Shown: positions 11,254 to 64,000 of the stretch, in pieces
How positions within the stretch are numbered: the first letter of the stretch is position 1
Layout of the letters: each line of letters starts with the position of its first letter
Source: a virus
Lineage: Duplodnaviria; Caudoviricetes
Reading direction: 5' to 3' (one strand)
Length of the DNA: 64,000 bases
IMG/VR virus record: IMGVR_UViG_3300029288_000076
Span: 96,001 to 160,000 of that record
Program-made: the position numbers and the translations under genes
The notes under the pieces: generated by a model
Seen by the model: only the letters and a program-made list of their open reading frames with translations
Told to the model about the DNA's origin: nothing
The model's database searches: none

Positions 11254-12648
11254 TTACTTTGGAACTTCTATATTATATTTTTCTAAAACTTTTAGCATTA
11301 TTCCTTTAGGAGTAAGGTCTTCTGCTGCAAAAATAGCTTTCAATATAGAAGGGCTAAACCCAGAAACTAAAGCCACATTATTATGTTTCACAGTAACTGG
11401 TTGACCTGCATAGCCGCTTGTATTCCAATATACAATAGATGGAATAGAGTAACCAGCAACTACCCATTTATCAAGAGAATTTTCAACTACAGCATTATCA
11501 CCGACCGTCCCCTCATGAAACTGCATATCAGAAACAATAATAAGCATATTAGGCATCATATTGTTTGTAAGATTAAAAAACTTTGCAGTAGACAATATCA
11601 GATCAAGAACTTTATCTATTCTAGTCTCTCCAATAGCACCATCAAATATTTCATTATTAAAAACAGCTTCAGAAAACTTCATTCCATTCCAATCTTTAAA
11701 TTTACCTTCGCTTTCAAATCCTATAAATTTCTTATGAAAAGGATTTTCTTTTGGAATTTTAGCAGAGCAATAAAGGGCCATCCCCTGCGAGATATCAACA
11801 GCTTTAATAGACCCGCTAACTTGTATGCTCATAGAACCTGAAGTATCTGCTATAACAATTGCCCTTGAATCAGTATCCATATAATTTGGTAAAGCTTCAA
11901 ACTGAGCGTCTCCAATTTGTTTATCACCATTTCTTACTGTTCTAACACAATCATGAGGAAAAAGAACGCTAGCATGAATAGTCGCTTCACCTTTTTCAAG
12001 AGCTTCTTTATATTTAGCAAATCTTTCTTCGTCATGCTTTCCAAAAGCATTAGTATATCTGGCCATTGCCACAGAAGGAACAGTTTTGTATTCAATTTCG
12101 TTCCATCTGTTTGTACACATTTTGTGTTCAACAATATGGTCTTTACGAATCTTAGCAAGAAATTTACGAAAGTCTTTTTCTGATTTGATACCAAGAGCAA
12201 CTCTTAATTGCTTATCTTTTCTGTCTGCCCATTTAGCAGCAAGGACATCATTATTGCATAAAGCACTTGCCCACATATCAGCTGCTATATAGTCAGCGTC
12301 AGAATTAAATAAAGATCTTAAATCATCCCATCTTCCAACTAAAGGAAGCCAACCAATATTTAATTCAAGCCATTTTAATCCAATTTCGTCTTGAGCAAGC
12401 CATTTATAAATAGATCTTGCGGCGCTTCTATTCCCACTACCTCCCCTTGCGTCGCGAAGCCAAAGTAAAAGCTTAAAGGCTACTACAGGGTCTACAATCC
12501 AAATCTTCTGAAACAACGACAAAGCAGATTCTTCACCTTCATAGAATGATTCTTTCTTTTTAAAAAGAGAACCAGCCTTACTAAAAAACTCTACTGCATG
12601 GTCAAGAGAATGTTCATACTGATTTGCGCCTTCATGAGTCTTGATCAT
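11254..12648 (-). CDS. DUF2828-family, TROVE/Ro60-like protein with C-terminal vWA domain
   Basis: RDARGGSG, GRWDDL, AAKWA, VPSVAM helical region; vWA MIDAS DTSGS...T...SDMQF; IVYWN and VSGFSP; RBS AGGAG. Confidence 0.85.
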   Translation of the reverse strand: MIKTHEGANQYEHSLDHAVEFFSKAGSLFKKKESFYEGEESALSLFQKIWIVDPVVAFKLLLWLRDARGGSGNRSAARSIYKWLAQDEIGLKWLELNIGWLPLVGRWDDLRSLFNSDADYIAADMWASALCNNDVLAAKWADRKDKQLRVALGIKSEKDFRKFLAKIRKDHIVEHKMCTNRWNEIEYKTVPSVAMARYTNAFGKHDEERFAKYKEALEKGEATIHASVLFPHDCVRTVRNGDKQIGDAQFEALPNYMDTDSRAIVIADTSGSMSIQVSGSIKAVDISQGMALYCSAKIPKENPFHKKFIGFESEGKFKDWNGMKFSEAVFNNEIFDGAIGETRIDKVLDLILSTAKFFNLTNNMMPNMLIIVSDMQFHEGTVGDNAVVENSLDKWVVAGYSIPSIVYWNTSGYAGQPVTVKHNNVALVSGFSPSILKAIFAAEDLTPKGIMLKVLEKYNIEVPK

Positions 12649-13306: not shown

Positions 13307-13933
13307 TCATTCTTCACCAATTATGCCATCAAAGATTATTGGTAATCTTTTTTTCATTTCCTCTAACAAAGGAACCATAACCTCTCTCATTTGAGGATGA
13401 GCGTTCTTAGAAGTTCTTAACTGAAAAATGTGTCTCCATTCTCTTAAATTAGCTGTAATCACAATTGTTGTAGCAGCAGAATTTGGTAAAACAGATCTTG
13501 CTATCTGAGGAGAAATACCATTATCTAACATCTTCATATAAGAATTCTCAGCATTTATACACACTGATTTCCATAATTCATAAGAACTACTTTTTTCATT
13601 TAACAAAGGCTTAATAACTTCTATTTCAAAATTAAATTCCTTCTTATTATAATTGCAATAACGTTGACTCTCCATTGTATAAGATGCTAAACGGTGACGT
13701 ACTAATTCATGACTAATCCCTCTATCACAAATAATTTTAACTGAAATATTAAAGTGCTCAATGACAGAAAGATGTCCACGATTGATAATATTTTGAATAA
13801 AAGATTTATAACTATCTTTAGATACTTGACCATAACTTTGATAAGCAACTCTACCAATAAATTCAATCTTCTTTAAGATTTCTATTCCGTCAAACTTATC
13901 TAAGATTTCAAAACTTGGCTCAATTATTTTCAA
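13307..13933 (-). CDS. thyX: FAD-dependent thymidylate synthase
   Basis: GHLSVIEH, RGISHELVRHR..SY.MESQRY, ARSVLP, NLREWRH..LR...AHPQMR. Confidence 0.97.
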   Translation of the reverse strand: MKIIEPSFEILDKFDGIEILKKIEFIGRVAYQSYGQVSKDSYKSFIQNIINRGHLSVIEHFNISVKIICDRGISHELVRHRLASYTMESQRYCNYNKKEFNFEIEVIKPLLNEKSSSYELWKSVCINAENSYMKMLDNGISPQIARSVLPNSAATTIVITANLREWRHIFQLRTSKNAHPQMREVMVPLLEEMKKRLPIIFDGIIGEE

Positions 13934-25273: not shown

Positions 25274-25726
25274 TCATTTTAATGCCTCTAATTCTTTATC
25301 TAAATCTCTTAACTCTGCTTCTGCTTCATTAAACTCTTCAGGATATCTAACTCTCAATTTTGCTATATTCTTTTTCATTACTTCTTCAAAACTAATATCA
25401 AGAACATCACAAATAATTGCTATATACCATAATAGATCCCCAACTTCTTCAACTAAATTTATATTATTTAAAGACTTATTATAAAATATATATTTTTTTA
25501 TAGCGTCAACAAGTTCTCCAGATTCAGTAGAGATGCCAAGAATAGCATGCATAAGCCTCTTATTAATATCTTTAGGTATATCATATGGACTTTCTGTTCT
25601 TTTTACTAAGTCAATATACCATTTACCAAATTTATTCTCATATTCAATAGGATTTTTAATAGTAAGTTCTTCTGGTAAATTTCCTGCTGAAATATTTTTA
25701 AATTTGTTGCTATAGTCTCTTTTCAT
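25274..25726 (-). CDS. MazG-like nucleoside triphosphate pyrophosphohydrolase
   Basis: HAILGISTESGEL.D..KK, EEVGDLLWY, NIAKL..RYP. Confidence 0.9.
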   Translation of the reverse strand: MKRDYSNKFKNISAGNLPEELTIKNPIEYENKFGKWYIDLVKRTESPYDIPKDINKRLMHAILGISTESGELVDAIKKYIFYNKSLNNINLVEEVGDLLWYIAIICDVLDISFEEVMKKNIAKLRVRYPEEFNEAEAELRDLDKELEALK

Positions 25727-29782: not shown

Positions 29783-31117
29783 TTATAGTCCTCCCTTTCC
29801 TATTGCTTTGTATAAAAATCCTAACTCTGTTACTTTAACAGAATCAAAAACATTTCTTCCATCTACAATTATAAAAGTATTCATCAAACCTTTAATATCT
29901 TCAAGATCAATAGCTAGATATTCTTTATGCTTAGTAGCTACTACCAAGGCATCAGAATCTTTCAAAGCAGTTTTAATGTTATTTGTTAAATTAACACCAT
30001 GAAATTCTTTTACATAAGGATCATGGACTATAACTTCCGAACCTAAAGATAATAATTGATGAACCAAATCATAAGTAGGACTATTTCTAATGTCATCTGA
30101 ATTTTCAAGATAAGCAGCTCCCAGTATAGCTACTTTTATATTGGTAAAACGTTTCTCTTTAATTGTTAAGCATTCATATAGTAAACTAATGATATGATGA
30201 GGCATAGAATTATTAATACTTCTTGCTAACTCTACGAATTGAGTATGAACAGTTTTCTTTCCATATAACTTAAGACCATATAGCAATAACCAAGTATCTT
30301 TTGGAAGACAGTGGCCACCAACTCCAGTTCCTGGCAAATGCATCATTCTCTCAGATCTAGTATTTATAAGCTCTTGTACTTCATACACATTAATTCCAAG
30401 ACTTTCACAAATTAAAGCCATTTCATTTGCAAAAGCTATATTAACGTCCCTATAAGCATTTTCAATAGTTTTTGTAGCTTCAGCTGTTTTTATATTTGTA
30501 GTATAAATTGGAGCCTTTATTATTGATGAATATAGCTTCTTAGCTCTATATTCACTTTCTTTATCAAACCCACCTACTATTCTTGGAAGTTCTTTTATAG
30601 ATTGTAATAGCTTTCCGGGCATTAGTCTTTCAAATGAATAAGCCAATAAAAAATCTTTTCCTGCTTTTAAACCTGTTTGCTCTATAATTGGTATTATTAT
30701 GTTTTCAGTAGTTCCTGGAGCAAGAGTAGATTCTATAATTATAAGCGCTCCTGACTTCATCTTCCAACTCATTTCATGAATTGCTTCTTTAAGATCAATA
30801 TAATCTGGTTCATTATATTGATTTACTGGAGTTTGAACGCAAATTATAATAATATCTCTGTCACTTAATCTTGAATAATCATCAGTAGCATAAAAAGACT
30901 TTTTATCCACAACTCTTTTAATTAATTCTGCTAATTCAGGCTCATCACCATTTATAGTAGATTCACCAGCATTAAGTGTTTTTATCTTCCATTCACTATT
31001 CTTTGCTCCTTTCTCTAAACCTACAACATGATTGTCTTCAACATCAGCTAATAATGCTGCGCACGGGAGACCAACATATCCCATTCCTATTACTGCTATT
31101 TTTACTTGATTGTTCAT
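29783..31117 (-). CDS. wecC: nucleotide-sugar 6-dehydrogenase (UDP-ManNAc/UDP-GlcNAc dehydrogenase, WecC/WbpA family)
   Basis: GMGYVGLP, ICVQTP, ESTLAPGTT, ERLMPG, ENAYRDVNIAFANE, GVGGHCLPKD, DDIRNSP. Confidence 0.9.
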   Translation of the reverse strand: MNNQVKIAVIGMGYVGLPCAALLADVEDNHVVGLEKGAKNSEWKIKTLNAGESTINGDEPELAELIKRVVDKKSFYATDDYSRLSDRDIIIICVQTPVNQYNEPDYIDLKEAIHEMSWKMKSGALIIIESTLAPGTTENIIIPIIEQTGLKAGKDFLLAYSFERLMPGKLLQSIKELPRIVGGFDKESEYRAKKLYSSIIKAPIYTTNIKTAEATKTIENAYRDVNIAFANEMALICESLGINVYEVQELINTRSERMMHLPGTGVGGHCLPKDTWLLLYGLKLYGKKTVHTQFVELARSINNSMPHHIISLLYECLTIKEKRFTNIKVAILGAAYLENSDDIRNSPTYDLVHQLLSLGSEVIVHDPYVKEFHGVNLTNNIKTALKDSDALVVATKHKEYLAIDLEDIKGLMNTFIIVDGRNVFDSVKVTELGFLYKAIGKGGL

Positions 31118-36068: not shown

Positions 36069-37118
36069 TTACAAAAACTTGTTTAAAACTTCCATTATTC
36101 TTTCTACAGCATGACCGTCCCATAATTTATTAATTTTATAATATAAAATGTTCAAATTTAAGAATTTATTAACTAAATCATTTATGGTTTTTTGATCTTC
36201 AGTTACAAAATTATTCCCATGCAAAGTAGTAACTTTATGCGGTGTATGATAATTATATGTAATACAAGGTTTATGTAAAATATAAGATTCACATTGAACT
36301 CCACCACTATCTGTAATAACAAAAGAAGCATTACATAATTTATTAATGAATTCTGAATAACTCATTGGCTCAACTAACTCTATGTTTTTTGATAAATATC
36401 GTTTATCAAACATAAAGACTTCTTTTATTCTAGGGTGAGCAGATAGTATAACAGGAATCTTATCTGCTACATTATTTAAGATTTCCAAAATACTTCTAAA
36501 ACCATTATCAACATTTTCTACACGGTGAAAAGTAGCTAAACAATACTGCTTGCTATTAAAATCAATCCACTTTGTATGGTGTAATCTTATTGAATCAGCT
36601 AAAACGTTACCTACAAGATGTCCATTTGCTAAGGTCTCACTCTTCAAATTTATCATTCCAGATTCTTCAGTTACAAAATTATATGTTGACATATGATCAA
36701 TAAGTTTTCTGTTTATCTCTTCTGGAAAGTCAAATCTTCCAACTCTTAAGCCTGCTTCTACGTGAGCGATGGGAAAGTCTTTTTTCTGAGCAAACAAAGT
36801 TCCAGCCAAAGAAGAATTCATATCACCAAATACTACAAACAAATCAGTAAAGCTTTCTAGAGAAAGGTTTTCAAAATATAACTTTTCTAGTTCAATAAGA
36901 ATTGAACCTGTTTGGTGAGCATGACCTTTTCCTGAACGCTCTAATCTATAATCAGGTTGGAAACCAAATTCATCAAAGAATACTTGGCTCATAGAATTTG
37001 AATAGTGTTGTTCTGTAAAGATAATTTTATAGTTAGTAAAATTAATCTTTTTAAAATACTCTATAAACGGATAGAGTTTTACAATATTAGGTCTACCACC
37101 AATACAAAAAACAATCAT
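36069..37118 (-). CDS. wecB: UDP-N-acetylglucosamine 2-epimerase (non-hydrolysing)
   Basis: GGRPN.VK, T.QHY, GDMNS, HVEAGLR, PEEINR, TFHR.EN, TDSGGVQ.E, WDGHA.ERI. Confidence 0.93.
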   Translation of the reverse strand: MIVFCIGGRPNIVKLYPFIEYFKKINFTNYKIIFTEQHYSNSMSQVFFDEFGFQPDYRLERSGKGHAHQTGSILIELEKLYFENLSLESFTDLFVVFGDMNSSLAGTLFAQKKDFPIAHVEAGLRVGRFDFPEEINRKLIDHMSTYNFVTEESGMINLKSETLANGHLVGNVLADSIRLHHTKWIDFNSKQYCLATFHRVENVDNGFRSILEILNNVADKIPVILSAHPRIKEVFMFDKRYLSKNIELVEPMSYSEFINKLCNASFVITDSGGVQCESYILHKPCITYNYHTPHKVTTLHGNNFVTEDQKTINDLVNKFLNLNILYYKINKLWDGHAVERIMEVLNKFL

Positions 37119-39390: not shown

Positions 39391-40152
39391 TCATTTTACT
39401 TTCCTCAATATCTTTGAGTCAGAAACCCAAGTATTCCAAACAGGGTTTTCTTCTTTTAAATAAATTCCATCTTCTTTCCATGATTTAACATATTTAACCA
39501 ATAATATAAAATGTCTTTTATTATTATTCTGTTTAGTATATTCAACTCTCCAAACTGCTCCTTCACATTCTTCCAAAGCTCCTTCTCTACCTTCTTTAGG
39601 ATAAAAATTAAATTCTTCAACAGAATAACCTGTTTCACCTCTATAAAGTAAATAAGGAATGTTAAATCTACTATTACCAAGAGCATGATTCTTGTTAATA
39701 ATTTCTTCAAAAGTTATTCTTTCATTTTCAGAATTAAAATAATCAAAAATGAAAAATGGTTCTTTCTTAAAATTGTATTTTGTTCCATGAGCTTGAATAC
39801 ACCACTCACCTATTACTCTATCGCCAGGGTTAAGCAATTCTAGAAATCTATCTTTCTGTTCAAAAACCCATTCATGAAATATCTGGTGCATCTTAAAAGG
39901 TGATGTATTTGCTACATATCCAGCTCTAGTTAATGGTACAACAGTATCTTCATATCTAAGAATGCCTACGTTTGAACCATCAATTTTTTCAGTAACTAAA
40001 ACTATACGCTTTGGTAATTTATCATTCTCAATAGCCATCTTCTCATGACCTGGAGAAGCTTTACTGTCAGATGGACCAAGTCTTGATCCGCTAAGATGTG
40101 GAATTGATCCATAATTCTTAATACCAAGTGGTTTTCTTTCAAATATGTTCAT
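39391..40152 (-). CDS. ATP-dependent RNA ligase (Rnl2-like family; start revised)
   Basis: EKIDGSN (KxDG motif I), GEW, FFIFD, EGAVWR, KYV. Confidence 0.85.
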   Translation of the reverse strand: MNIFERKPLGIKNYGSIPHLSGSRLGPSDSKASPGHEKMAIENDKLPKRIVLVTEKIDGSNVGILRYEDTVVPLTRAGYVANTSPFKMHQIFHEWVFEQKDRFLELLNPGDRVIGEWCIQAHGTKYNFKKEPFFIFDYFNSENERITFEEIINKNHALGNSRFNIPYLLYRGETGYSVEEFNFYPKEGREGALEECEGAVWRVEYTKQNNNKRHFILLVKYVKSWKEDGIYLKEENPVWNTWVSDSKILRKVK

Positions 40153-40303
40153 TTTTCTATATAGCCTTTTCCTTTGCATCTCAAACATTGTTTGTTATTA
40201 TATATTGGACATATTAGACCAAATGGCATTGGAACATATACTATATCTTCTATAGACTTTTTCCCATTACAAGTAAAGCAGACTTTTTTAGATTTTTCTT
40301 TAA

Positions 40304-47151: not shown

Positions 47152-47985
47152 TTAGATACGATTAAGTAAATTTTGTTTTTTAAAAGCAAAACATAAAACG
47201 CCTAATACATTTCCATTGTTTGGAAATAGAAAATAAGATCCTTTCTTCCAAGCATTTTTATCCCAATTTATATATCCTGGAAGTTCGTTCACATAACCAT
47301 AAATCAATTCAGATCCTAAAAACATTTCTTGTATATGCCTAACATTTATATTTGTAATATTCTTAGCTCTATCACCATATCCTAATTCCCCATTCATTAG
47401 ATAATCTATAGTAAAAATAATTATACCTCCAGGAGCCACTAAGTCCCAGCATGCTTTTAAGTGTTTTTCATATTTATCAACACCATAGCAAATTGGTATA
47501 TGTTCTAAAACAGATATATTAAAAACTACATCAAAAAATTCTTTTTGTAATGGTAATTCTTCTACCAAACCGACCACCATTTTTGCTTCATAATCTTTTA
47601 ATATTGACATAAAAGATGTCCATTCAGCTTCTAGATTATTTCTTAAAGCCCAAATAAGAATATCAGTAAGATGTTCATAATCAGAAGAAAAGACTTTATG
47701 GATTGTTAAATCTGTTTGCTCCATTAATAAAGCTGAAACAAAAAGCATATCAGAACCAATATCTAAAACTTTCTTTCCTTTTAATCCTCCATGAAAATTA
47801 GAAGCAATATTTAATACAGTTGGATACTCTTTCAATCTTGTAGTGCAGGAACAAAAAAATATCATTTCTTCTTTTTGATATTGTGTAAGTTCTAACCATT
47901 CTTCAAGTTTAAGTTCGTTAGACATCCAGTCAAAAGCTTTAATATAGTATCTAATATCTTCTTGAGAAGGATTCTTTAAAATCAT
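47152..47985 (-). CDS. class I SAM-dependent methyltransferase
   Basis: R.KEYP, VLDIGS, FDVVFNISVLEH, PGG..IFT.DY. Confidence 0.85.
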   Translation of the reverse strand: MILKNPSQEDIRYYIKAFDWMSNELKLEEWLELTQYQKEEMIFFCSCTTRLKEYPTVLNIASNFHGGLKGKKVLDIGSDMLFVSALLMEQTDLTIHKVFSSDYEHLTDILIWALRNNLEAEWTSFMSILKDYEAKMVVGLVEELPLQKEFFDVVFNISVLEHIPICYGVDKYEKHLKACWDLVAPGGIIIFTIDYLMNGELGYGDRAKNITNINVRHIQEMFLGSELIYGYVNELPGYINWDKNAWKKGSYFLFPNNGNVLGVLCFAFKKQNLLNRI

Positions 47986-48911
47986 TTCAAATTTTTAAGA
48001 TGCGTATAAGTTTCTGTTACTGGATTATTTTTGTACCAATCAGTTGCCCTATCAATTCCACTTTGTAATGGTGTGAAACCTAGCACTGGTTGTCCAAATT
48101 CTTTGATAGTTAAATCATTCTCTAAAATCAAATAAGGTATATCGTCGTCACCACGTTCTTTAAAAATAGGGTCTTTTTCTATATTCAAACTCTTGCACAT
48201 CGCATTATACAAATCAACAATCTTATATGATCTTCCTGACGATACATGGTAAGCTCCATGTCCATTACTTTTAAGTATTGCCTGGAGCAAATAAAAAAGC
48301 AAATCATTTATATAAACAAAATCTCTTTCAACTCCAGTTACTACTGTGCAATCTTCTCCTTCAGTTAATCTCTTGAAAAATGTGGGCACAGGACCTGATA
48401 AATTACGTTCGCCGTAGCAGTTAGCTAATCGAAAAGAAACATAATCAATTCCAGACATTGCTATATATCTTTCAGCTGCTGTTTTTGAAATAGAATAGCT
48501 ATTAGTTGGGGCTATTTTATGTACAACTGGAATTGGAACTATCTCTGGCCATCCATAGCAAAGTGATGTTTGCATATAGATAATTCTTTTCACTTTATTA
48601 TTTTTAGCTGCTTTAATAATATTAACTGTCCCAAGTACATTTGTAGCACTATCGCGATACCAATCTTCAGGATCTTTATATGACGCTGCACAATGTACTA
48701 CAACTTCTGGTTTAACGAGTTCAAAAAGTTCATTAACCCTGCCAATATTCTCTATTGTATCTGCAACAAAGTATTCCATTCTAGCATCAATGTTTTTAGC
48801 TTTACCTGTTGACAAATTATCTATTCCATATACTTGATGTCCCCTATCAATAAGTTTGTTTGCTAAATGAGAACCAATAAATCCAGCAACCCCAGTTATT
48901 ATGACATTCAA
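47982..48911 (-). CDS. NAD-dependent epimerase/dehydratase SDR, WbmG/WbmH-like
   Basis: TGVAGFIGS, AASYKDPEDWY, QTSLCYG, YSISK, RLAN; the ASYKDP.DW and QT.LCYG motifs recall Bordetella WbmG/H. Confidence 0.9.
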   Translation of the reverse strand: MNVIITGVAGFIGSHLANKLIDRGHQVYGIDNLSTGKAKNIDARMEYFVADTIENIGRVNELFELVKPEVVVHCAASYKDPEDWYRDSATNVLGTVNIIKAAKNNKVKRIIYMQTSLCYGWPEIVPIPVVHKIAPTNSYSISKTAAERYIAMSGIDYVSFRLANCYGERNLSGPVPTFFKRLTEGEDCTVVTGVERDFVYINDLLFYLLQAILKSNGHGAYHVSSGRSYKIVDLYNAMCKSLNIEKDPIFKERGDDDIPYLILENDLTIKEFGQPVLGFTPLQSGIDRATDWYKNNPVTETYTHLKNLK

Positions 48912-49555
48912 TTAGTTTCCTCCCTATCTTTTTTCTTTCTAGTTTCTTTTTTATTATGATAACTAAAATGTTCTCCAACAGTCATCATTTGCAAATTTGT
49001 CAAATCATTATTTTTACTATTCCCATCTTTATGATGAATAACGCAACCTTTTGGTATTTCTCCATAAGCTTCTCCCCAAACTAAACGATGCATTAACCTT
49101 CTTTTATCTCCTTCATTGTAAATTGATATATAATTGCCACTATCAAGTACTTCACCTTTCCACCTTGAATTTTTCTCCCTTATAGTACTTTCTCTCATTT
49201 TCCTCTTTGCTTCTTCGGAAAGATGTTTTCCTGTTTGGGCTTCGCTCATCCGCTTTCTAGTTTCTAAAGAGAGATTTTCTATTTTATGACATTCACTTCT
49301 ACGCTTCTTTGTCTCTTCGGAAAGATTTTCTGTTTTATTAATAAAACTTATTTGTTGCCTTGTTTCTTTAGAATGATGTTTACCTTTCATGCCAAAATTA
49401 TGATTATTTTTAGCATTCCACTTAGAAACACAAGAGTGACAACAAAATAATGACTCTTTCTTCTTCTTTTTTCCACACTTATATTTATTTAGAATTTCTT
49501 TTCCGCACTGTTTACAACACTCTTTATTGTCATCCATTCTATAACATTTCTCCAT
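48908..49555 (-). CDS. HNH homing endonuclease with NUMOD3 repeats
   Basis: GKHHSKETR, GKHLSEEAKRKM; HRLVW...IHHKDGN..NN...NL. Confidence 0.9.
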   Translation of the reverse strand: MEKCYRMDDNKECCKQCGKEILNKYKCGKKKKKESLFCCHSCVSKWNAKNNHNFGMKGKHHSKETRQQISFINKTENLSEETKKRRSECHKIENLSLETRKRMSEAQTGKHLSEEAKRKMRESTIREKNSRWKGEVLDSGNYISIYNEGDKRRLMHRLVWGEAYGEIPKGCVIHHKDGNSKNNDLTNLQMMTVGEHFSYHNKKETRKKKDREETN

Positions 49556-51575: not shown

Positions 51576-51640
51576 GGAACTACATCCTTATAAAGTATTA
51601 TAGTTTTCTTGCACAGGATCCGTAGGTTCCTGTAAGAGAA
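51573..51640 (-). ncRNA. putative TnpB omegaRNA 3' scaffold
   Basis: Stem ACAGGA/TCCTGT with loop containing TACGGA able to pseudoknot with terminal TCCGTG; second stem AACTATA/TGTAGTT. Confidence 0.55.
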
Positions 51641-52667
51641 ATCGATTCAAGATATTTAAAGACGCATTATAATCTGCATCGGTAGTGTAACCACAACTCT
51701 TACACTTAAATATCTCACCATTTCGATTCTCCTTGTGGACTGCTTTGCACATTGAGCATTCTTGGCTCGTGTAAGCAGGATTAACTTTGTGAACGTGGAC
51801 ACCACTTATTTCACATCGTTGCCTTAACCTATTTAAAAAATATGAATAAGACCACCGTTGTAACTTATTATTAAATTTCTTGGTAAACTTACCTTTACTG
51901 TGCTTCTTTACATTTTTAAGATCCTCCACAACTAGAATTTTGATAGTTTCAAAAGGAATTTCTTTTGTTACTCTATTAATATAATTATCTCGTTCTATTA
52001 GTTTCCTTTTAAATGCTTTAGAACCTTGTACTTTTCTTGAAATATTTTCAATTTTCTTTTCTAATTCAGTTCCTATTTGTTGTTTTGTAGAAAGAACTGC
52101 CAGCTTCTTATATCCACAATCAAGACCTATAGCTTTTCCTGTTTCTTTTAATGTAACATCTTTCTGGAAAAATAAATCTACAAAAAATGCTCCATCAGAT
52201 CTTTTTCTAAGTCTAATTGACTTTTTAAGATTCCAACTTTCAAAACTATTAAAATGCTCATGTTTTTTAGATGGGATTTTAAAGACAAAATGATTACCAA
52301 TATTCCAAAATTTTATCCATATATCAAAAGAAGTTGAAATATTAAAATTAATAGTAACAAAATTTGAATTGAGAATAATATTTTTCTTTTTAAAAACTGG
52401 TTTTATCTTCTTTTTCTTTTTTCTTTGGCTCTTGACTATTTGTAACGCTTGTTGAGCTAGAGATTGTTTCAAAGCAGGAGATAACCATGTATCTCCAACA
52501 AGATCATAAATAGATTTATATACATAATTCCCTTCAAATACATTATTATCATAGAAAATAGAAATATACTTGTTAATAACTTTTGCTGATTCCTCTAGCA
52601 AAGAACCTAAAATTTGTAATTTGCCAGTGTTTGCTTTATTAATAGATATAGTTGATTTTCTAATCAT
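51588..52667 (-). CDS. tnpB: TnpB RNA-guided endonuclease (IS200/IS605/IS607-related)
   Basis: RuvC GLDCG, VVEDL, DADYNASLNI; PAYTSQEC..C and C..C zinc finger. Confidence 0.93.
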   Translation of the reverse strand: MIRKSTISINKANTGKLQILGSLLEESAKVINKYISIFYDNNVFEGNYVYKSIYDLVGDTWLSPALKQSLAQQALQIVKSQRKKKKKIKPVFKKKNIILNSNFVTINFNISTSFDIWIKFWNIGNHFVFKIPSKKHEHFNSFESWNLKKSIRLRKRSDGAFFVDLFFQKDVTLKETGKAIGLDCGYKKLAVLSTKQQIGTELEKKIENISRKVQGSKAFKRKLIERDNYINRVTKEIPFETIKILVVEDLKNVKKHSKGKFTKKFNNKLQRWSYSYFLNRLRQRCEISGVHVHKVNPAYTSQECSMCKAVHKENRNGEIFKCKSCGYTTDADYNASLNILNRFLLQEPTDPVQENYNTL

Positions 52668-54190: not shown

Positions 54191-55126
54191 TTAAACTAAA
54201 ATATTCCTAAAATCAAACACAAACTTGTTCCAATCATTTAAAATGCTTTCAAACTCATACTCTTCTATTTTTTGTTTAAATTTATCTAAATCAATTTTTC
54301 TATTTAAGTATTGAAGCTCAAATTCTTCAAATATTAACTCTTCATATCCTAACTCTTTTACCAATTCTCCTAATTTGAAAAGCTTATAATTTCTTTTTAA
54401 AAGATCTAGAGCATCTTCAGTAAACAGATTCTTATACTTTTTCTTTTCAATTAAATCTGTTTTTATTCGTTCATAATTATCTATAACGTTCCCATAAGTA
54501 TTTACTAAATCTGTTGCTGTTTTTGGCCCTATGCCATCGATTCCTCTAACATTATCACTCATATCACCAAGAAGTATCTTGTAATAAATAAAGTTTTCAA
54601 TACTATTTATACCAGTTTTCTCAGAAAAGTTATCTACAGTAACCAGCTCGTTTTTATTTGGATTGCACCATGCCACATTTGTGTCTACTGCTAAATAAAG
54701 ATCTCTATCAGTAGAAATAATTACGACCTCTTCATTACTACTAAAGAAACTTGCCAATAGATGAATTGAGTCATCAGCCTCTATGCCTTTGATTCTTACG
54801 TTTATAATACCTATTAGGCTAAGAATGTCATATAATTCGTTTAATTGATTTAAAAATTCTAAATAAAATTCATCTGAACCTGGATTATTCTTTCTATTTT
54901 CTGCCCTATTAGTTTTATAAGTATTTAATAGATCAAGACGATAATGCACTTTCCCAAAATCATAACACATCACAACCATTGATGGAGAAAACTTTTTGAG
55001 TACGCTTCTTAGCATATTCAAAACTCCATAAACAACGCTTACTCTCTGACCCTTAGAGTTAGATAAATCTAAAGTAGAATTGGCACGAAATGCGAAATTA
55101 TTTCCATCAATAATACAAATGGTCAT
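54191..55126 (-). CDS. 5'-3' exonuclease / flap endonuclease (PolI N-terminal or T4 RNase H type)
   Basis: IDGNNFAFR, YKTNR, EADD, STDRD, GDMSDN..GI.GIGPKTA. Confidence 0.93.
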   Translation of the reverse strand: MTICIIDGNNFAFRANSTLDLSNSKGQRVSVVYGVLNMLRSVLKKFSPSMVVMCYDFGKVHYRLDLLNTYKTNRAENRKNNPGSDEFYLEFLNQLNELYDILSLIGIINVRIKGIEADDSIHLLASFFSSNEEVVIISTDRDLYLAVDTNVAWCNPNKNELVTVDNFSEKTGINSIENFIYYKILLGDMSDNVRGIDGIGPKTATDLVNTYGNVIDNYERIKTDLIEKKKYKNLFTEDALDLLKRNYKLFKLGELVKELGYEELIFEEFELQYLNRKIDLDKFKQKIEEYEFESILNDWNKFVFDFRNILV

Positions 55127-55746
55127 TCTGTTTCCTCTATTACTTTTTTGCCATGATGAATTTTATTATGCTCTCCAGGAGTTACTAGTTGCAAATTTAT
55201 TAATTCGTTATTTTTTCTATTGCCATCTATATGATGAATATGGTAACCCTCTGGTATCAAACCATTAGCTTCTTCCCATATATAACGATGCAATGATTTT
55301 CTTTTATCACCTTTAACATATATTGAAGTATATGTGCTTGTATCAATAATTTCACCCTTCCACATATAATTTTTTTCTCTCTTAAGAGATTCGCTTATTT
55401 TATGTTTTTGCTCTTCTGGCAAATGCCTACCTTTTAATGTATTACTTATTTTTTTTCTACATTCCTCAGTAATACATCTGCCCTTTAACTTAACACTTAA
55501 TAGTTTTCTAGTCTCATCTGAAAATATTCTTCCCTTTAATTTATCGCTTAACTTTCGCTTATGCTCTTCTGATAAGCTCTTTCCTTTAAATCCAACATTA
55601 GGATTGTTAATAATTTGCCATTTGCTAGAACAAGAAACGCTACAAAACTTTTTACTTTCTTTACTTTTAAACTTAATTACAATTTCATTATTACACTGTA
55701 AACAATATTTTTTTATCTTATCATTTCTATCACAATATTTTATCAT
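55123..55746 (-). CDS. HNH homing endonuclease with NUMOD3 repeats
   Basis: SEEHKRKLS..LKGR repeats; HRYIWE...IHHIDGNRKNN...NL. Confidence 0.9.
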   Translation of the reverse strand: MIKYCDRNDKIKKYCLQCNNEIVIKFKSKESKKFCSVSCSSKWQIINNPNVGFKGKSLSEEHKRKLSDKLKGRIFSDETRKLLSVKLKGRCITEECRKKISNTLKGRHLPEEQKHKISESLKREKNYMWKGEIIDTSTYTSIYVKGDKRKSLHRYIWEEANGLIPEGYHIHHIDGNRKNNELINLQLVTPGEHNKIHHGKKVIEETE

Positions 55747-59300: not shown

Positions 59301-59738
59301 TTACCTTGTAACTTTCACATCATTGTTGTACTCTTCCCTCATTGAATACCCATAAGCTTTCATAGAATCTCGCTTCATAAGCAATGAATCTTTGCAAGCT
59401 CTTAGAACTTCAGCTACATAAATTGCCTCATTATATTTTTCTTTTAACTCAACTAAAGTCTCATCACCAATTACTTCTTGCCGTATTTTAGCTTCTGTAA
59501 CTTTTTTATTAGTTGTTTCATAAGATTCTCTAATAGTCATATCAAGTTTAGATTCTAAAAGCTCAATAGCTGATTTAAGTTTACTAGCCTGCCATTGAGC
59601 TTTTGCATAAAGAAATGCATACCACGAAAATGTTCCAGGAAGTTTAGTAGCTTCACCAGTAAAATCAGTTTCATCAAATTTTGCCTCATCAAGAATGTTA
59701 ATTTCATATTCTTGGTTAAAGATTTTTACTTTCTCCAT
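59301..59738 (-). CDS. UvsY-like recombination mediator
   Basis: Helical; KVTEAKI..; size and synteny with SSB and RecA. Confidence 0.65.
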   Translation of the reverse strand: MEKVKIFNQEYEINILDEAKFDETDFTGEATKLPGTFSWYAFLYAKAQWQASKLKSAIELLESKLDMTIRESYETTNKKVTEAKIRQEVIGDETLVELKEKYNEAIYVAEVLRACKDSLLMKRDSMKAYGYSMREEYNNDVKVTR

Positions 59739-60202
59739 TACAGATAATCCTCACTAAAAAAGTTTCTAATTTTAACTCCAGCGTTTTTGAAAATAATTAA
59801 TGAATATATCGTATTATATTCACTCTCAAATACAACTTCTTTAATTCCAGCAGTTATTATAAGTTTTGCACATTCTGAACATGGCGTTTCTGGAGTATAA
59901 ATAACAGATTTATGCATACCACCCAATTGTATACCAAATCTTGCGCATGTTCCTATTGCATTAACCTCTGCATGAACGCATAAAACTGTCTCCATATTAT
60001 TACCAGAAACAACTACACTTCCGCCATTACATTTATCTCGTTTACACAAAGAAGTATCTGACCCAAATGGCGGACTATTCCATCCTTCAGAAACAATTCT
60101 TCCATCAAGTGCAATTATGCATCCAACTTTTCTAGTTTTGCATGTTGACTGCTCTTTAACGCGCATCATTATATCATAAAAATACTTATCAGGATCTTTC
60201 AC
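59738..60202 (-). CDS. dCMP deaminase
   Basis: STC..RKVGC, HAEVNAI, PCSECAK.I..AGI. Confidence 0.92.
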   Translation of the reverse strand: MKDPDKYFYDIMMRVKEQSTCKTRKVGCIIALDGRIVSEGWNSPPFGSDTSLCKRDKCNGGSVVVSGNNMETVLCVHAEVNAIGTCARFGIQLGGMHKSVIYTPETPCSECAKLIITAGIKEVVFESEYNTIYSLIIFKNAGVKIRNFFSEDYL

Positions 60203-61196
60203 TTTCTGACCTCAAAAAGTGTTTGTAACAATTGCAATTTTCTAATTCGTAAATAAAATTTTCATGCGGCAAGTTAAACTTCTTGCATAAGAGAACTAAA
60301 GTTAACTGCTTCCAATACATTGAAATATTACAATTCATTATTTCATCTATAAAATAGCTAGCATTAATAGATGCGTCTGCACTTCTTATCAACCTTTCTA
60401 ATCTGCATATAATATTCAAATCACAATCTTCACTATAAATATCGCTATTTACAAATTCCATTTTTGGCATTGAAAAATATTGTTTGTTTTTTTCATCTAC
60501 AATATTGTGCCCTTTTTCATAGAATTTATCATAAATATGAAATGAATTACAGATGTGTGTATATGCACCAACTTCAACATTTAATAAAATTGCTAAAATC
60601 TCTTGAAACATTGTAAAACTAAATGCATCATAAGGAGTTCCCCAAATAACATCTTGGGACCGCATATGTGTAATCATATGCAATTTATTTTCTCTTACAA
60701 AAAACTGCAAGTCTAAAGTACATACTTGATCTTTGGTATGCTTAAGAGAATCTTGTGGAGTCTTTATATGAATAATAGCATGCCTTGTATAAAGATCTTC
60801 TTCAAATTTCTTTATAACAAAATCAAGCTGATCAAATCCTATATCCTTATTTGCGCCAAAAATTCTATTTCCATAAGCAGAATTAAGAGTTAAGCCATCG
60901 TCACTAAAATTATCAAAATTCTTAGAATAATATTTCATTGTGGCTAAATCATCTCTTCCACTCCAATACCATAAAAACTCACCTATAGCGAATGGCAAAC
61001 TAATCTTGCGCTTTTTAGAAAAAATAAGTCTATTTCTAATATTTGTTAAGCAAAATCCACTAGCTAAAATTTCGGTGTTCTCAAGACATCTACATTTTAC
61101 TTTGCTACCAAAAGCAAATATTGCGTCTATCATATCTTGATAAATATAATCCATATTGGTAGCACTATTAAAGTAAGTCATTATAACATCTCCCAC
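60189..61196 (-). CDS. thymidylate synthase homologue, probable dCMP hydroxymethylase-type enzyme
   Basis: AYG.R, D.VCT..LQF.VR, MRSQD.IWG.PYD (Asp at the dUMP/dCMP specificity site), SFHIY. Confidence 0.85.
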   Translation of the reverse strand: MGDVIMTYFNSATNMDYIYQDMIDAIFAFGSKVKCRCLENTEILASGFCLTNIRNRLIFSKKRKISLPFAIGEFLWYWSGRDDLATMKYYSKNFDNFSDDGLTLNSAYGNRIFGANKDIGFDQLDFVIKKFEEDLYTRHAIIHIKTPQDSLKHTKDQVCTLDLQFFVRENKLHMITHMRSQDVIWGTPYDAFSFTMFQEILAILLNVEVGAYTHICNSFHIYDKFYEKGHNIVDEKNKQYFSMPKMEFVNSDIYSEDCDLNIICRLERLIRSADASINASYFIDEIMNCNISMYWKQLTLVLLCKKFNLPHENFIYELENCNCYKHFLRSESERS

Positions 61197-62260
61197 TTTC
61201 TATATTCAAAAATATTATTTAGAATATCATCAACAGCATCTTTTGCAATTCTTTTATTCATACTAATAAATTCTTCAAGCAACTCGCCGTAGATATTTGT
61301 ATCATAAATTTCTCGCATTTTTTTTGCCATCTCGAAACCATCTTGAACAAGCATGTATTTAGGAAAATATTTATCTGCATTAAGAATGTTACTATCACAA
61401 AAACAAAGTATGTTTGCGCTTACGCACTCAAAAGTTCTGATTGTCATTAAGCCAACTACTTCATATATATTCCTTGCTATTTGAAAAGAAAACATAGAGT
61501 CTGATAGCTTTTTAATAACATTTATAGGAGATATTTTACCTTTGAATTGCACATTAGCTTCATTCATAAGATTGTTAGAAAATTCTTTTGTTTCTTCCCT
61601 TAACCAATTACCATAAATCTTCATTGATCTTAGGTCGGCTGGGTACGGATTAGCAAAAGTATAAAGCATTCTTCTTCTTCCATATTCATTACCTACATAC
61701 ACACAATCTTCATACTCAGCTGCTCTTTTCTTCTCAATTAAACTTTTATTTGTAAAAGTAAAATAAGGCCAAAAAATAGAATTTTTAAAAAAAGCATCTT
61801 CACTATGCGGCCTTAATACAATTGCATTTGAAAGCACATTTTTTGGATAGTTTTTTACCCAAAAATCAGTATCAATAATAAATGGAAGCACGCTTTTTTT
61901 ATCAATAAATTTTTTAAGAAGATCAATTAGCACAAAATAATCACTATCAAATTGCTCAGCGTATATCTTTCTATAAAACCCCATAGCAGGCCTAGATTCT
62001 GCAATTAACAAATCATAATTATTAACATTAATATTGCTACATTCAACATATGCTATTTTATTTATTATGTTCGCAAAATTATTATCTATATATTTTTTAG
62101 TTTCTTCATCCGCATTGTCTTCTAAAAGCCTTCCAGTAAAGGTTATATTATTATTTCTTGATAAAAGGTTCTCAAACAATTCTAGTCTAAGAGTTATTGA
62201 ACCATCAACACTAATATTTTTAGCGTCATATCTTCCAACACCATACCACAATATATTCAT
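61181..62260 (-). CDS. GT-B glycosyltransferase, phage DNA beta-glucosyltransferase-like
   Basis: YVGNEYGR, IYGNW, V.FKGKI, T.RTFE motifs; adjacent to the TS homologue. Confidence 0.65.
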   Translation of the reverse strand: MNILWYGVGRYDAKNISVDGSITLRLELFENLLSRNNNITFTGRLLEDNADEETKKYIDNNFANIINKIAYVECSNINVNNYDLLIAESRPAMGFYRKIYAEQFDSDYFVLIDLLKKFIDKKSVLPFIIDTDFWVKNYPKNVLSNAIVLRPHSEDAFFKNSIFWPYFTFTNKSLIEKKRAAEYEDCVYVGNEYGRRRMLYTFANPYPADLRSMKIYGNWLREETKEFSNNLMNEANVQFKGKISPINVIKKLSDSMFSFQIARNIYEVVGLMTIRTFECVSANILCFCDSNILNADKYFPKYMLVQDGFEMAKKMREIYDTNIYGELLEEFISMNKRIAKDAVDDILNNIFEYRKWEML

Positions 62261-62820
62261 TATTTCTCCTCTTCGAGAATAGACATAATGTCTAAATAAA
62301 CAATATCTGCATTTGCGTTCGCGCCATTATATGTTGTGTCATATTTAATAAATTTAAAAGGAGATTCTGACAAAAACTTCTCATATTCAAATATAAAAGC
62401 TTTAATTTTATCAAAACTATAATTGCTATCAATTCCTTTTTTATCACTTTGTATTCTTTGCAAAATAGTTATTGGATTAGCACAAAACAATAAAAAGACA
62501 ACGCTATCTGCGATAAATTTATAATACTGTTCATAAACTTTATTCTTATCTAAATCCAAATTTATTTTTGGATAAACTATATCAGAAAGAAACGACCTGT
62601 CAAAAAATATAGGATTTCCTTTAGACAGTCCATTTATAAACGGAATAAGTTTTAACATTAATAAATTTTCGCCAGTTATTAGTGAAGTAAAATCAGAGTC
62701 AAATTCATTTTTAGAAGGTCTTGTTGGGTGATAATAAAAAGCCTTTGGATACCTTTCCATTACTTTCTTTAAAATAGAAGTCTTGCCTGTCTTATCAAAC
62801 CCTTCAAATATAAAAATCAT
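62260..62820 (-). CDS. dNMP/thymidylate kinase-like protein
   Basis: IFEGFDKTGKTS P-loop; FDRSF.SD.VY. Confidence 0.85.
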   Translation of the reverse strand: MIFIFEGFDKTGKTSILKKVMERYPKAFYYHPTRPSKNEFDSDFTSLITGENLLMLKLIPFINGLSKGNPIFFDRSFLSDIVYPKINLDLDKNKVYEQYYKFIADSVVFLLFCANPITILQRIQSDKKGIDSNYSFDKIKAFIFEYEKFLSESPFKFIKYDTTYNGANANADIVYLDIMSILEEEK

Positions 62821-62823
62821 AAT

Positions 62824-63465
62824 TTATCCGCAAAAATTGTCATATAAAGACTTTATCCTAATCGCCTCATCATAATAATATTCAAATTGTTCTTCTTTAG
62901 TGATTCTCTTATATTTAAAATACGCTGGATGTTTTATCTTGAAAAGGCTAAGATTTTCATGCCCGCTTGCTGCAAGGAAATTTTTTACTTTATCTCCTAT
63001 AGCAATAAAGACCTTACCATTAGTATTATTAAAATTTAAATAATCAAGTTGATCTCTTGTCCAATATTCAAAACAATTATTGAACGCTTCATCGGTATAA
63101 TTATTTTTTTCAAAAGGACATTTTGCAACATTAATGAAATTCCAATTATTATCTTTACCATAAAATATATTAGAAAAAATATTTGTAACCATTCCTATTT
63201 CTGTTGATAAAATCACTTTTTCATAAGAAGAAACCATTGCATCAAAATCATTATTTAAAAAAGCCTCTATCATTTCTTTATCATATTGAGACGTTTTCGT
63301 ATTTTTATTTAGGTTCGATTTCCAATCCCCAGGATTGATACCTATAAATGTTATAAAATTTTTATCTCTTATTATGCCATATTGCGGCGGCATAATCCAC
63401 CCATTTATTTGCGAGCACTTACTACAAGATAAAAATTTTTGCTTGTCTATATTACTCAGAATCAT
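62824..63465 (-). CDS. uracil-DNA glycosylase superfamily protein (family 4/5-like; start revised to MILSN)
   Basis: CSKC, GINPG, NVAKCP...C, AIG, IKHPAY. Confidence 0.75.
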   Translation of the reverse strand: MILSNIDKQKFLSCSKCSQINGWIMPPQYGIIRDKNFITFIGINPGDWKSNLNKNTKTSQYDKEMIEAFLNNDFDAMVSSYEKVILSTEIGMVTNIFSNIFYGKDNNWNFINVAKCPFEKNNYTDEAFNNCFEYWTRDQLDYLNFNNTNGKVFIAIGDKVKNFLAASGHENLSLFKIKHPAYFKYKRITKEEQFEYYYDEAIRIKSLYDNFCG

Positions 63466-63916
63466 TATTTCTAATTCTCTTTTTATACTTACTATTTTTT
63501 CTTTTCTTATTATGAAAAGCAACATGCTCACTTTGAGTCATTATTTGCAAATTTGATAAATCATTATTAAATCCATCACCATTTACATGGTGGATAATAT
63601 ACCCTTCTTGAATTAATCCATAAGCTTCTTCACATACAAAACGATGCATTTGTTGCCTTTTCCCATTACCTATACCTATTAAAAAATGAGAACCGCTTTT
63701 TGATATACCGTTATTCCAGTTTGGATTCTTATTGCCAGTTAATGCATCACCTATTTGTTTTTTAGATTTTTCTGAATGATTTTTTCCATTAAAACCAAAA
63801 TTTGGATTATTAATATTATGCCATTTATTAATACATGCTCTGCTACAAAATATTCTTTTTCCAGCATTTTCTTTAACTATGATTTCTTTATTACATTGCT
63901 TACAATATATTATCAT
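63452..63916 (-). CDS. HNH homing endonuclease with NUMOD3
   Basis: GKNHSEKSKKQI, NPNW, HRFV...IHHVNGD..NN..SNL. Confidence 0.88.
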   Translation of the reverse strand: MIIYCKQCNKEIIVKENAGKRIFCSRACINKWHNINNPNFGFNGKNHSEKSKKQIGDALTGNKNPNWNNGISKSGSHFLIGIGNGKRQQMHRFVCEEAYGLIQEGYIIHHVNGDGFNNDLSNLQIMTQSEHVAFHNKKRKNSKYKKRIRNNDSE

Positions 63917-64000
63917 TTAAATCCTTGTCTATTCTCACTTTCCAGTCTATCCCTAACAACGCTTGATTTTAATGAAAATTCTTTCCAAAATTCTTCTTCA

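Follow-up and report, generated by a model that had tools for sequence, protein, structure and literature searches.

Phages classically protect their DNA from restriction enzymes and CRISPR nucleases with glycosylated 5-hydroxymethylcytosine (5hmC), a base that newly discovered host glycosylase and type IV defences target in their turn. The T4 pathway to this base comprises gp56, gp42, gp1, cd and the alpha- and beta-glucosyltransferases, with gene 42 adjoining beta-gt and uvsX on the T4 genome. Here we describe a gene module with the same logical set of enzymes in a 64,000-nucleotide stretch of viral DNA (the window), which corresponds to bases 96001-160000 of a single IMG/VR virus record of 186,386 bp (IMGVR_UViG_3300029288_000076; estimated completeness ~90%). 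The module, at window positions 59738-63465, lies within the replication operon of an uncultured phage of 186 kb that has a DnaE-type polymerase, and it is a distant member of a known strategy, in a phage lineage unrelated to T4. In our reading it probably directs a T4-type, pre-replicative replacement of cytosine, followed by glycosylation of 5hmC in the phage DNA. This reading draws on gene content, on active-site signatures, on the predicted fold of the glycosyltransferase and on the way these genes recur together in other phages; from these we infer what every enzyme acts on, how completely cytosine is replaced, that a sugar is added and that the DNA is thereby protected.

The kind of arrangement is already known, because a metavirome survey reported frequent ThyS association of phage GT-B glycosyltransferases, with ~28% of GT-B contigs being ThyS-associated (bioRxiv 10.1101/2023.12.21.572611). 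The present locus likewise encodes a phage GT-B enzyme with an architecture like that of T4 beta-glucosyltransferase (BGT) beside a thymidylate synthase (TS) homologue. The enzymes characterised in the survey are those linked to TET/5mYOX, and its text mentions uracil-DNA glycosylase (UDG) zero times (10.1101/2023.12.21.572611). A second system, the arabinosyl-5-hydroxycytosine of RB69 and DLP3, resembles the module in several respects: Asp at position 177 of the TS homologue and an acidic residue at 143 (positions 126, 143, 167, 169 and 177 here follow ThyA numbering), a deoxynucleoside monophosphate (dNMP) kinase, DNA glycosyltransferases and phage-encoded sugar-nucleotide synthesis (PMC13326640). 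The third is MilA (PDB 5b6d/5jnh), a CMP hydroxymethylase that shares the Cys, the Glu and the equivalents of Asp186 and Asp143 with our TS homologue.

Five open reading frames make up the module:

59738-60202, minus strand: dCMP deaminase, analogue of T4 cd (PF00383, E 1.2e-19; PHROG 174, E 3.3e-31; HAE and PCSEC, i.e. PCxxC, motifs)
60189-61181, minus strand: predicted gp42-type dCMP 5-hydroxymethylase of the TS superfamily (PF00303, E 1.8e-29)
61181-62260, minus strand: BGT-like GT-B glycosyltransferase (GT), proposed to act on 5hmC in DNA after replication (profile and structure matches)
62260-62820, minus strand: divergent Tmk-like P-loop dNMP kinase (PF02223, E 4.3e-8; PHROG 761; P-loop GFDKTGKT)
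62824-63465, minus strand: family-4-like protein of the UDG superfamily (PF03167, E 1e-4, 22.8 bits, below the cut-off of 24.3)

All five lie where an earlier note, made from the letters of this DNA, had put them, and its account of a TS homologue overlapping with a GT-B enzyme, a dNMP kinase and a dCMP deaminase agrees with both the coordinates and the domain and structure matches; the sequence-level parts of that reading all held, and some could be sharpened. The deaminase and TS genes overlap by 14 nt, the GT stop codon and the TS start codon share base 61181, and the kinase stop and the GT start share base 62260. Such tight packing suggests a single transcription unit. A promoter and terminator scan found no terminator-like sites interrupting the module on the minus strand, and the signal of that scan across the module was no better than in shuffled sequences.

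The genome has a GC content of ~30% and nearly all of its genes are on the minus strand. Along the direction of transcription the replication block starts with a DnaB-like helicase, a primase and a DnaE-type polymerase, all past the end of the window; the first two names come from reading the translations, and the identity of DnaE has further support. Next comes the gene for a 127-residue MazG-like protein, then that for an HNH homing endonuclease, and then the five genes of the module, from the UDG-like protein through the kinase, the GT and the TS homologue to the dCMP deaminase. These are followed by a UvsY-like protein, a gp32-type single-stranded DNA-binding protein, a RecA/UvsX-like recombinase, a UvsW-like helicase and a 5'-3' exonuclease. 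Searching cultured phages with the nucleotide sequence of the module returned only a 111-nt match, to Bacillus phage G.

The TS homologue can be read from an ATG at 61181 or from a GTG at 61196 (60189-61196, 335 residues). The ATG appears the more likely start because it is preceded by a GGGAG ribosome-binding site and agrees with a 330-residue database form; residue numbers below run from the GTG and are five lower in the ATG form. The TS fold and its catalytic residues are present, with Cys159, Glu73, His220 and Tyr222 matching Cys146, Glu58, His207 and Tyr209 of ThyA. The motif RSQDVIWGTPYD (residues 179-190 of the 335-residue frame; window 60627-60662) carries Asp in place of Asn at its last position, as had been noticed in the earlier note, and in HMMER alignments with Bacillus subtilis ThyA and MilA this residue falls on ThyA Asn177 and MilA Asp186. 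Three residues before the catalytic Cys, Asp156 supplies an acidic residue at the position of ThyA Leu143, as is also the case in T4 gp42 and MilA. Replacement of ThyA Asn177 by Asp gives cytosine specificity, and replacement of Leu143 by Asp or Glu accompanies the formation of hydroxymethyl rather than methyl products, by way of water access (PMC13326640). Ser180 and Arg138 align with Ala176 and Lys133 of MilA (ThyA positions 167 and 126). Ser167 and Arg126 are associated with a preference for deoxyribose, Ala176 and Lys133 of MilA with one for ribose (PMC5175136), so that on this point the protein departs from MilA and has the Ser and Arg of the dCMP- and dUMP-specific enzymes.

We aligned the protein with T4 gp42, RB16 td, the ViI-like and SPO1-like dUMP hydroxymethylases, RB69 gp48, phage G gp319 and relatives from databases and IMG/VR, and read nine active-site columns off the alignment. 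The query reads ERDCSDDHY (Glu73, Arg138, Asp156, Cys159, Ser180, Asp182, Asp190, His220 and Tyr222), identical at all nine positions to T4 gp42 (ERDCSDDHY). RB16 td (ERLCSDNHY) differs from it by Leu at 143 and Asn at 177; the dUMP hydroxymethylases read ERDCSDNHY, the ViI-like, SPO1-like and Pseudomonas phage NEU2024 homologues differing from the query by Asn at 177. The ViI-like and SPO1-like groups are known producers of 5-hydroxymethyluracil (5hmU). A quick maximum-likelihood tree groups the query with T4 gp42 in an Asp-type clade (SH-aLRT 94); the Asn-type hydroxymethylases and td fall outside it. The best solved relative is MilA (E 1.6e-29; best ThyA, 1.5e-15), and the best match in a cultured phage is gp319 of Bacillus phage G, at 32% identity and likewise of Asp type. 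The residues thus favour a full dCMP-hydroxymethylase state, with 5-hydroxymethyl-dCMP as the predicted product. The earlier note had allowed 5-hydroxymethyl-, 5-hydroxy- or 5-methylcytosine; these options narrow to the first, since the signature equals that of gp42 and lacks Asn169, and the diagnostic residues speak against the other two.

Relatives of the GT are hard to find by sequence. A word-based protein search gave none besides the window's own proteins, a PDB sequence search gave no match, an IMG/VR scan with the GT sequence gave no relatives, and plain BLASTP against T4 BGT was not significant, profile comparison alone being so. An exhaustive HMMER search did recover 87 remote relatives at 20-31% identity, and hhalign matched the resulting family profile to the UDP-sugar-binding C-terminal domain of T4 BGT (residues 176-346) at 97.4% probability, E 1.1e-11. 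Arg275, which is invariant in the family, and Glu278 fall on the UDP-binding Arg269 and Glu272 of BGT; Asp132 is nearly invariant and is a candidate for the catalytic base, which in BGT is Asp100. An AF2 model built from the alignment has a GT-B fold (pLDDT 89.9, pTM 0.88). When this model was compared by Foldseek with 350,542 PDB chains, T4 BGT took ranks 1-3, 5 and 6 (top E 1.6e-10), and VIA-align superposed 307 residues on T4 BGT (1qkj) with Z 24.0 and an rmsd of 3.9. The label BGT-like, given in the earlier note, is borne out by profile, by structure and by the presence of the family near Asp-type TS genes of other phages, and the name BGT-like GT-B for the predicted product of 61181-62260 seems to us justified. 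Its proposed action on 5hmC in duplex DNA draws support from genomic linkage to Asp-type TS genes.

To follow this linkage, IMG/VR was scanned with the TS alignment; the 80 closest loci, which all have the gp42 signature, were kept, and genes up to 8 kb from TS were counted as neighbours. Of these loci, 37 have a member of the BGT-like GT family as a neighbour of TS, 40 a dCMP deaminase, 53 DnaE, 15 a MazG-like protein and 11 a Tmk-like kinase. At least 37 IMG/VR contigs thus have the TS and GT core, which makes the strategy much wider than the Straboviridae. Relatives of the GT adjoin Asp-type TS genes in the contigs L002, L017, L018 and L030. The gene order is GT, UDG, GT2, TS and PolB in L017, with a dCMP deaminase upstream, and GT, PolB, serine hydroxymethyltransferase (SHMT) and TS in L018/L019. 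In L002 the GT lies directly upstream of the closest relative of our TS homologue, amid genes for a carbamoyltransferase, a methyltransferase, GT2 enzymes, a short-chain dehydrogenase/reductase (SDR) and a nucleoside diphosphate (NDP)-sugar dehydrogenase. The closest synteny is that of L030: NDP-sugar dehydrogenase, SDR, UDG (PF03167, 4.1e-11), Tmk-like kinase, radical SAM enzyme, GT, TS, a dCMP deaminase fused to an NTP-pyrophosphatase domain (PF01503), and DnaE. In Bacillus phage G, genes for a dCMP deaminase, a glucose-1-phosphate thymidylyltransferase and a protein annotated as alpha-glucosyltransferase lie near that for gp319.

Some of these neighbourhoods hold further enzymes. The radical SAM protein of L030 (L030:5689-6942), between the kinase and the BGT-like GT, is of the B12-binding type and may represent a further tailoring step. 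Large carbamoyltransferases (Carbam_trans_N/C) adjoin Asp-type TS homologues in L001 (L001:6234-9419), where the TS gene is extended to 472 residues, and in L002 (L002:3375-5084); they may serve to carbamoylate 5hmC or the sugar on it. Elsewhere (L003:8763-10765 and L005:51-2417), Asp-signature TS homologues are immediately preceded by a Tmk-like kinase and a match to HMUDK_HMUD1. HMUDK_HMUD1 is the 5-hydroxymethyldeoxyuridine DNA kinase family of thymidine hypermodification, and the arrangement suggests a kinase-dependent hypermodification that starts from 5hmC, not from 5hmU.

The remaining enzymes of precursor metabolism include two encoded outside the five-gene block:

13307-13933, minus strand: ThyX, flavin-dependent thymidylate synthase, source of dTMP (PF02511, E 3.9e-47; RHRLASYTMES)
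63913-64000, minus strand, continuing past the window to the equivalent of 64296 (G000:C1:159913-160296): MazG-like all-alpha NTP pyrophosphatase of 127 residues (PF03819)

ThyX had been described as intact, and its domain match and RHRLASYTMES signature agree. It is the only ThyX/ThyA-type source of dTMP found, the TS homologue being the single PF00303 gene of the genome, and because ThyX is encoded the TS homologue is unnecessary for dTMP. The kinase at 62260-62820 is the sole such kinase in the genome. It scores 33.5 bits against PF02223 (cut-off 27) and falls far under the cut-off of the dTMP-kinase equivalog (27 against 83 bits), for which reason we class it as a divergent Tmk member; we propose that it phosphorylates 5-hydroxymethyl-dCMP (hm-dCMP), and also dTMP, as a functional analogue of T4 gp1. 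The 127-residue MazG-like protein, which begins just past the window end and did not figure in the earlier note, matches the PHROG dUTPase (1.7e-5) and NTP-pyrophosphatase (3.6e-4) families and has an EEAVE (EExxE) metal motif. It is a candidate dCTPase/dUTPase, a functional analogue of T4 gp56 that would complete the T4-like pathway, and the fusion of an NTP pyrophosphatase to the deaminase in L030 supports a place for it in that pathway. No trimeric dUTPase was found. A second and much stronger MazG-like gene lies at 25274-25726 (PF03819, E 4.6e-13; PHROG 229, E 4.9e-39).

Under this reading, the MazG-like NTPase would convert dCTP (and dUTP) to the monophosphate, and the TS homologue, with methylene-tetrahydrofolate and water, would turn dCMP into 5-hydroxymethyl-dCMP. 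The Tmk-like kinase would then form the diphosphate and host NDP kinase the triphosphate, hm-dCTP, for incorporation by the phage polymerase. Remaining dCMP would be converted by the deaminase to dUMP, which lowers the dCMP pool, and dUMP by ThyX to dTMP. After replication, the BGT-like GT-B would flip out 5hmC in duplex DNA and transfer the sugar of an NDP-sugar to its hydroxymethyl group, and the resulting glycosyl-5hmC DNA would resist restriction enzymes and CRISPR nucleases.

The likeness to T4 is seen in the gp42-identical signature of the TS homologue and in the GT-B, for which T4 BGT is the top match by both structure and profile. In other respects the two systems differ. By sequence the TS homologue lies closer to MilA than to gp42, and the GT shares only ~14-16% identity with BGT; the kinase is Tmk-like, not gp1-like, and the NTPase a short MazG-like protein; ThyX instead of td provides dTMP, and the replicase is of DnaE type, not family B; and the operon includes a UDG-like protein with a predicted Fe-S Cys pattern. 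If our reading is true, a large uncultured phage that replicates with DnaE has reassembled a whole T4-style pathway out of distant homologues, and the enzymes could extend the toolkit for 5hmC labelling.

Several points weigh against this reading. The genome is a metagenomic assembly, and base modification is predicted from its genes; the signature rules derive from a limited number of characterised enzymes, and the branches of the quick tree are long and poorly supported. The kinase could be merely the phage's dTMP kinase. The MazG-like protein matches PF03819 below the cut-off (E 1.5e-4; 19.8 against 22 bits), and the stronger MazG gene far from the module makes a dCTPase role for the 127-residue candidate less certain. 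As to the GT, it has no match to the Pfam model of the T4 BGT family, its only Pfam match being a weak one to PF13524 (E 1.9e-4) that 38 of 60 aligned relatives share, and GT4 small-molecule and lipid glycosyltransferases score VIA Z 23.0-23.5, a tie with T4 BGT at 24.0. From this tie and the weak Pfam match it follows that the acceptor of the GT could be something other than DNA.

If so, the phage DNA would contain plain 5hmC and the GT-B would glycosylate, for instance, a cell-envelope or virion glycan together with the sugar island described below. That the window holds a large island of glycan type, with six GT2 enzymes, methyltransferases and an AsnB-like amidotransferase, fits this explanation as well. 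Yet the GT gene overlaps both the TS and the kinase genes, and the family stands beside an Asp-type TS gene not only in 37 of the 80 loci but also in four independent contigs. Moreover, the profile match is specifically to T4 BGT, which also tops the Foldseek ranking. We regard a non-DNA acceptor as improbable, albeit the least so of the explanations that compete with glycosylation of 5hmC in DNA.

A considerably smaller chance attaches to a flavin-dependent 5-hydroxy-dCMP synthase of the RB69 gp48 kind as the identity of the TS homologue, the DNA then bearing O-glycosylated 5-hydroxycytosine. It was one of the options named in the earlier note, and enzymes of this sort do have Asp at 177, Asp or Glu at 143, and paired dNMP kinases and DNA glycosyltransferases (PMC13326640). 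The residue that sets them apart is Asn in place of Asp at 169 (PMC13326640); our protein keeps Asp there (Asp182), as do all 80 of its nearest IMG/VR relatives, whilst RB69 gp48 (ERECSNDHF) has Asn in that column. Because the RB69 control reads in our own alignment as published (PMC13326640), the negative is meaningful, and with Asn169 missing hydroxymethylation is predicted. No genes for arabinose-5-phosphate isomerase or other steps to NDP-arabinose were seen among the annotated window proteins, which again differs from RB69 and DLP3. Marginally less probable still is a dCMP methyltransferase of the XP12 type, or a dTMP synthase redundant with ThyX, among neighbours concerned with unrelated nucleotide salvage: the PF00303 match and the PHROGs label 'thymidylate synthase' would suit it, but Asp at 177 speaks against dUMP as substrate, Asp for Leu at 143 is the state of the hydroxymethylases (T4 gp42, MilA and the dUMP hydroxymethylases; PMC13326640), and a methyl group would offer the adjacent GT no acceptor. 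Least probable of all is a free modified nucleoside or cytosine-sugar metabolite of the mildiomycin kind (MilA, MilB, MilC), for although MilA is the closest solved structure and both L002 and L030 have an NDP-sugar dehydrogenase with the module, the residues with which MilA selects ribo-CMP, Ala176 and Lys133, are the deoxy-specific Ser180 and Arg138 here, the genes sit between those for the DnaE polymerase and gp32, RecA and UvsW, and a dNMP kinase and a dCMP deaminase suit a DNA-precursor pathway.

The likeliest sources of novelty are the adjacent sugar genes and the recurrent UDG-like partner. The sugar or glycan island spans ~20 kb (29783-50792), interleaved with SbcCD and RNA-ligase genes, and encodes an NDP-sugar dehydrogenase, WecB, six GT2 enzymes, two methyltransferases, an SGNH/GDSL esterase, an SDR and an AsnB-like amidotransferase. 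Two of its genes have relatives near TS genes:

29783-31117, minus strand: NDP-sugar 6-dehydrogenase, nearest to UDP-ManNAc dehydrogenases (TIGR03026, 397 bits)
47982-48911, minus strand: SDR-type NDP-sugar epimerase/dehydratase (PF01370, E 5.2e-41)

The best equivalog-type matches of the dehydrogenase are UDP-ManNAc dehydrogenases, under their cut-offs, and WecB (36069-37118) scores 227 against TIGR00236 (cut-off 210). Together they may supply a uronic-acid donor, and a link from this donor to DNA is tentative. In 22 of the 80 loci a relative of the SDR lies no more than 8 kb from the TS gene, and such relatives are enriched where the GT is present (18 of 37 loci with the GT, 4 of 43 others; Fisher p 1.1e-4). 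The dehydrogenase of the island has a single match among the TS neighbourhoods, in L030; both a dehydrogenase and an SDR lie inside the module in L030 and L002. No relatives of the six GT2 enzymes, WecB, the methyltransferases, the SGNH esterase or the AsnB-like protein were found within 8 kb of TS in the 80 loci, and the island proteins, at 24-26% identity, are not orthologous to the sugar genes beside TS in L002.

A role for the SDR in tailoring the donor sugar of the DNA GT is therefore plausible, if tentative, a sugar-nucleotide link that was absent from the earlier note. The idea that the island builds an oligosaccharide on DNA is weakly supported, since only the SDR recurs (22/80) and the dehydrogenase has the one match; beyond proximity we found no support for it. 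One joint reading, which we think unlikely, has the BGT-like GT priming 5hmC and the island adding a uronic or amidated oligosaccharide, with the UDG-like protein as a modification-aware glycosylase. In that joint and equally doubtful form, the glycosylase would remove uracil, 5hmU or cytosine that is unmodified or foreign, either for quality control or to attack the DNA of the host or of competitors, and would thus be more than an ordinary enzyme of uracil repair.

Family-4 UDGs have a four-Cys ligand pattern, CxxC ... C-x14-17-C. The UDG-like protein has Cys14 and Cys17 (CxxC), Cys116 and Cys131 (C-x14-C), GINPG at 42 and KHPAY at 178; the four Cys and the motif-B His of KHPAY are conserved with the UDGs of L030 and L023. 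Motif A departs from the GE[AG]PG of family 4, reading GINPG in the query and GQNPG in L023, whilst L030 keeps GEAPA; we take the Asn of GINPG to be MUG/SMUG-like. A start at 63465 or earlier is favoured because the CxxC lies upstream of the Met47 start of the 189-residue database form. An ESM Atlas model (pTM 0.82) has family-4 UDG as its nearest structural cluster (TM 0.64/0.68), and the Atlas feature search gave 0.95 to clusters bearing UDG, whilst a single-sequence AF2 model reached a pLDDT of only 33. BLASTP linked the protein to the L023 and L030 UDGs (E 6.5e-8 and 3.8e-8), both of which are PF03167-positive and located in GT/TS modules.

Broader searches with this protein were negative. 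A six-frame search gave no match; a word-based search found no relatives besides the window's own proteins; a PDB sequence search produced chance matches only (a photosystem II extrinsic protein); tblastn against cultured phages had no match; and IMG/VR scans with the protein and with a UDG alignment gave no relatives. The description 'UDG-like' in the earlier note can accordingly be refined to family-4-like on the Cys pattern, the Atlas cluster and the BLASTP links, with the reservation that PF03167 is under its cut-off and motif A is atypical. A UDG recurs in the module in one of the 80 IMG/VR loci and in L017 and L023, so that on synteny this predicted glycosylase is a recurring, not a universal, member. 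By default we would guess that it removes uracil or deaminated 5hmC (5hmU) from phage DNA. Brig1, a UDG-superfamily defence enzyme, excises alpha-glucosyl-5hmC and thereby tells us that the superfamily can evolve recognition of glycosylated 5hmC (PMC11078745). Our protein resembles family-4 UDG and Brig1 in its predicted UDG fold, and family 4 also in its four-Cys pattern and motif-B His; it differs in motif A (GINPG) and in being phage-encoded, inside a modification operon.

One further gene lies amongst those of the module:

63452-63916, minus strand: HNH_3/NUMOD3 homing endonuclease (PF13392, E 8.3e-12, and PF07460), between the NTPase and the UDG-like gene

It is a mobile element and no component of the pathway, and it separates the NTPase gene from the remainder of the modification operon. 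Two more HNH_3 and NUMOD3 genes of the same architecture are found at 48908-49555 and 55123-55746, in the replication and sugar blocks. The replication region also encodes a TnpB/Cas12f-like protein of 359 residues (51588-52667; Cas12f1-like_TNB, E 1.8e-20). Finally, an RtcB RNA ligase (7512-8756), a DUF2828/DUF7788 protein resembling Ro60 (TROVE-vWA-like; 11254-12648) and a second RNA ligase (39391-40188) point to an RNA-repair set.

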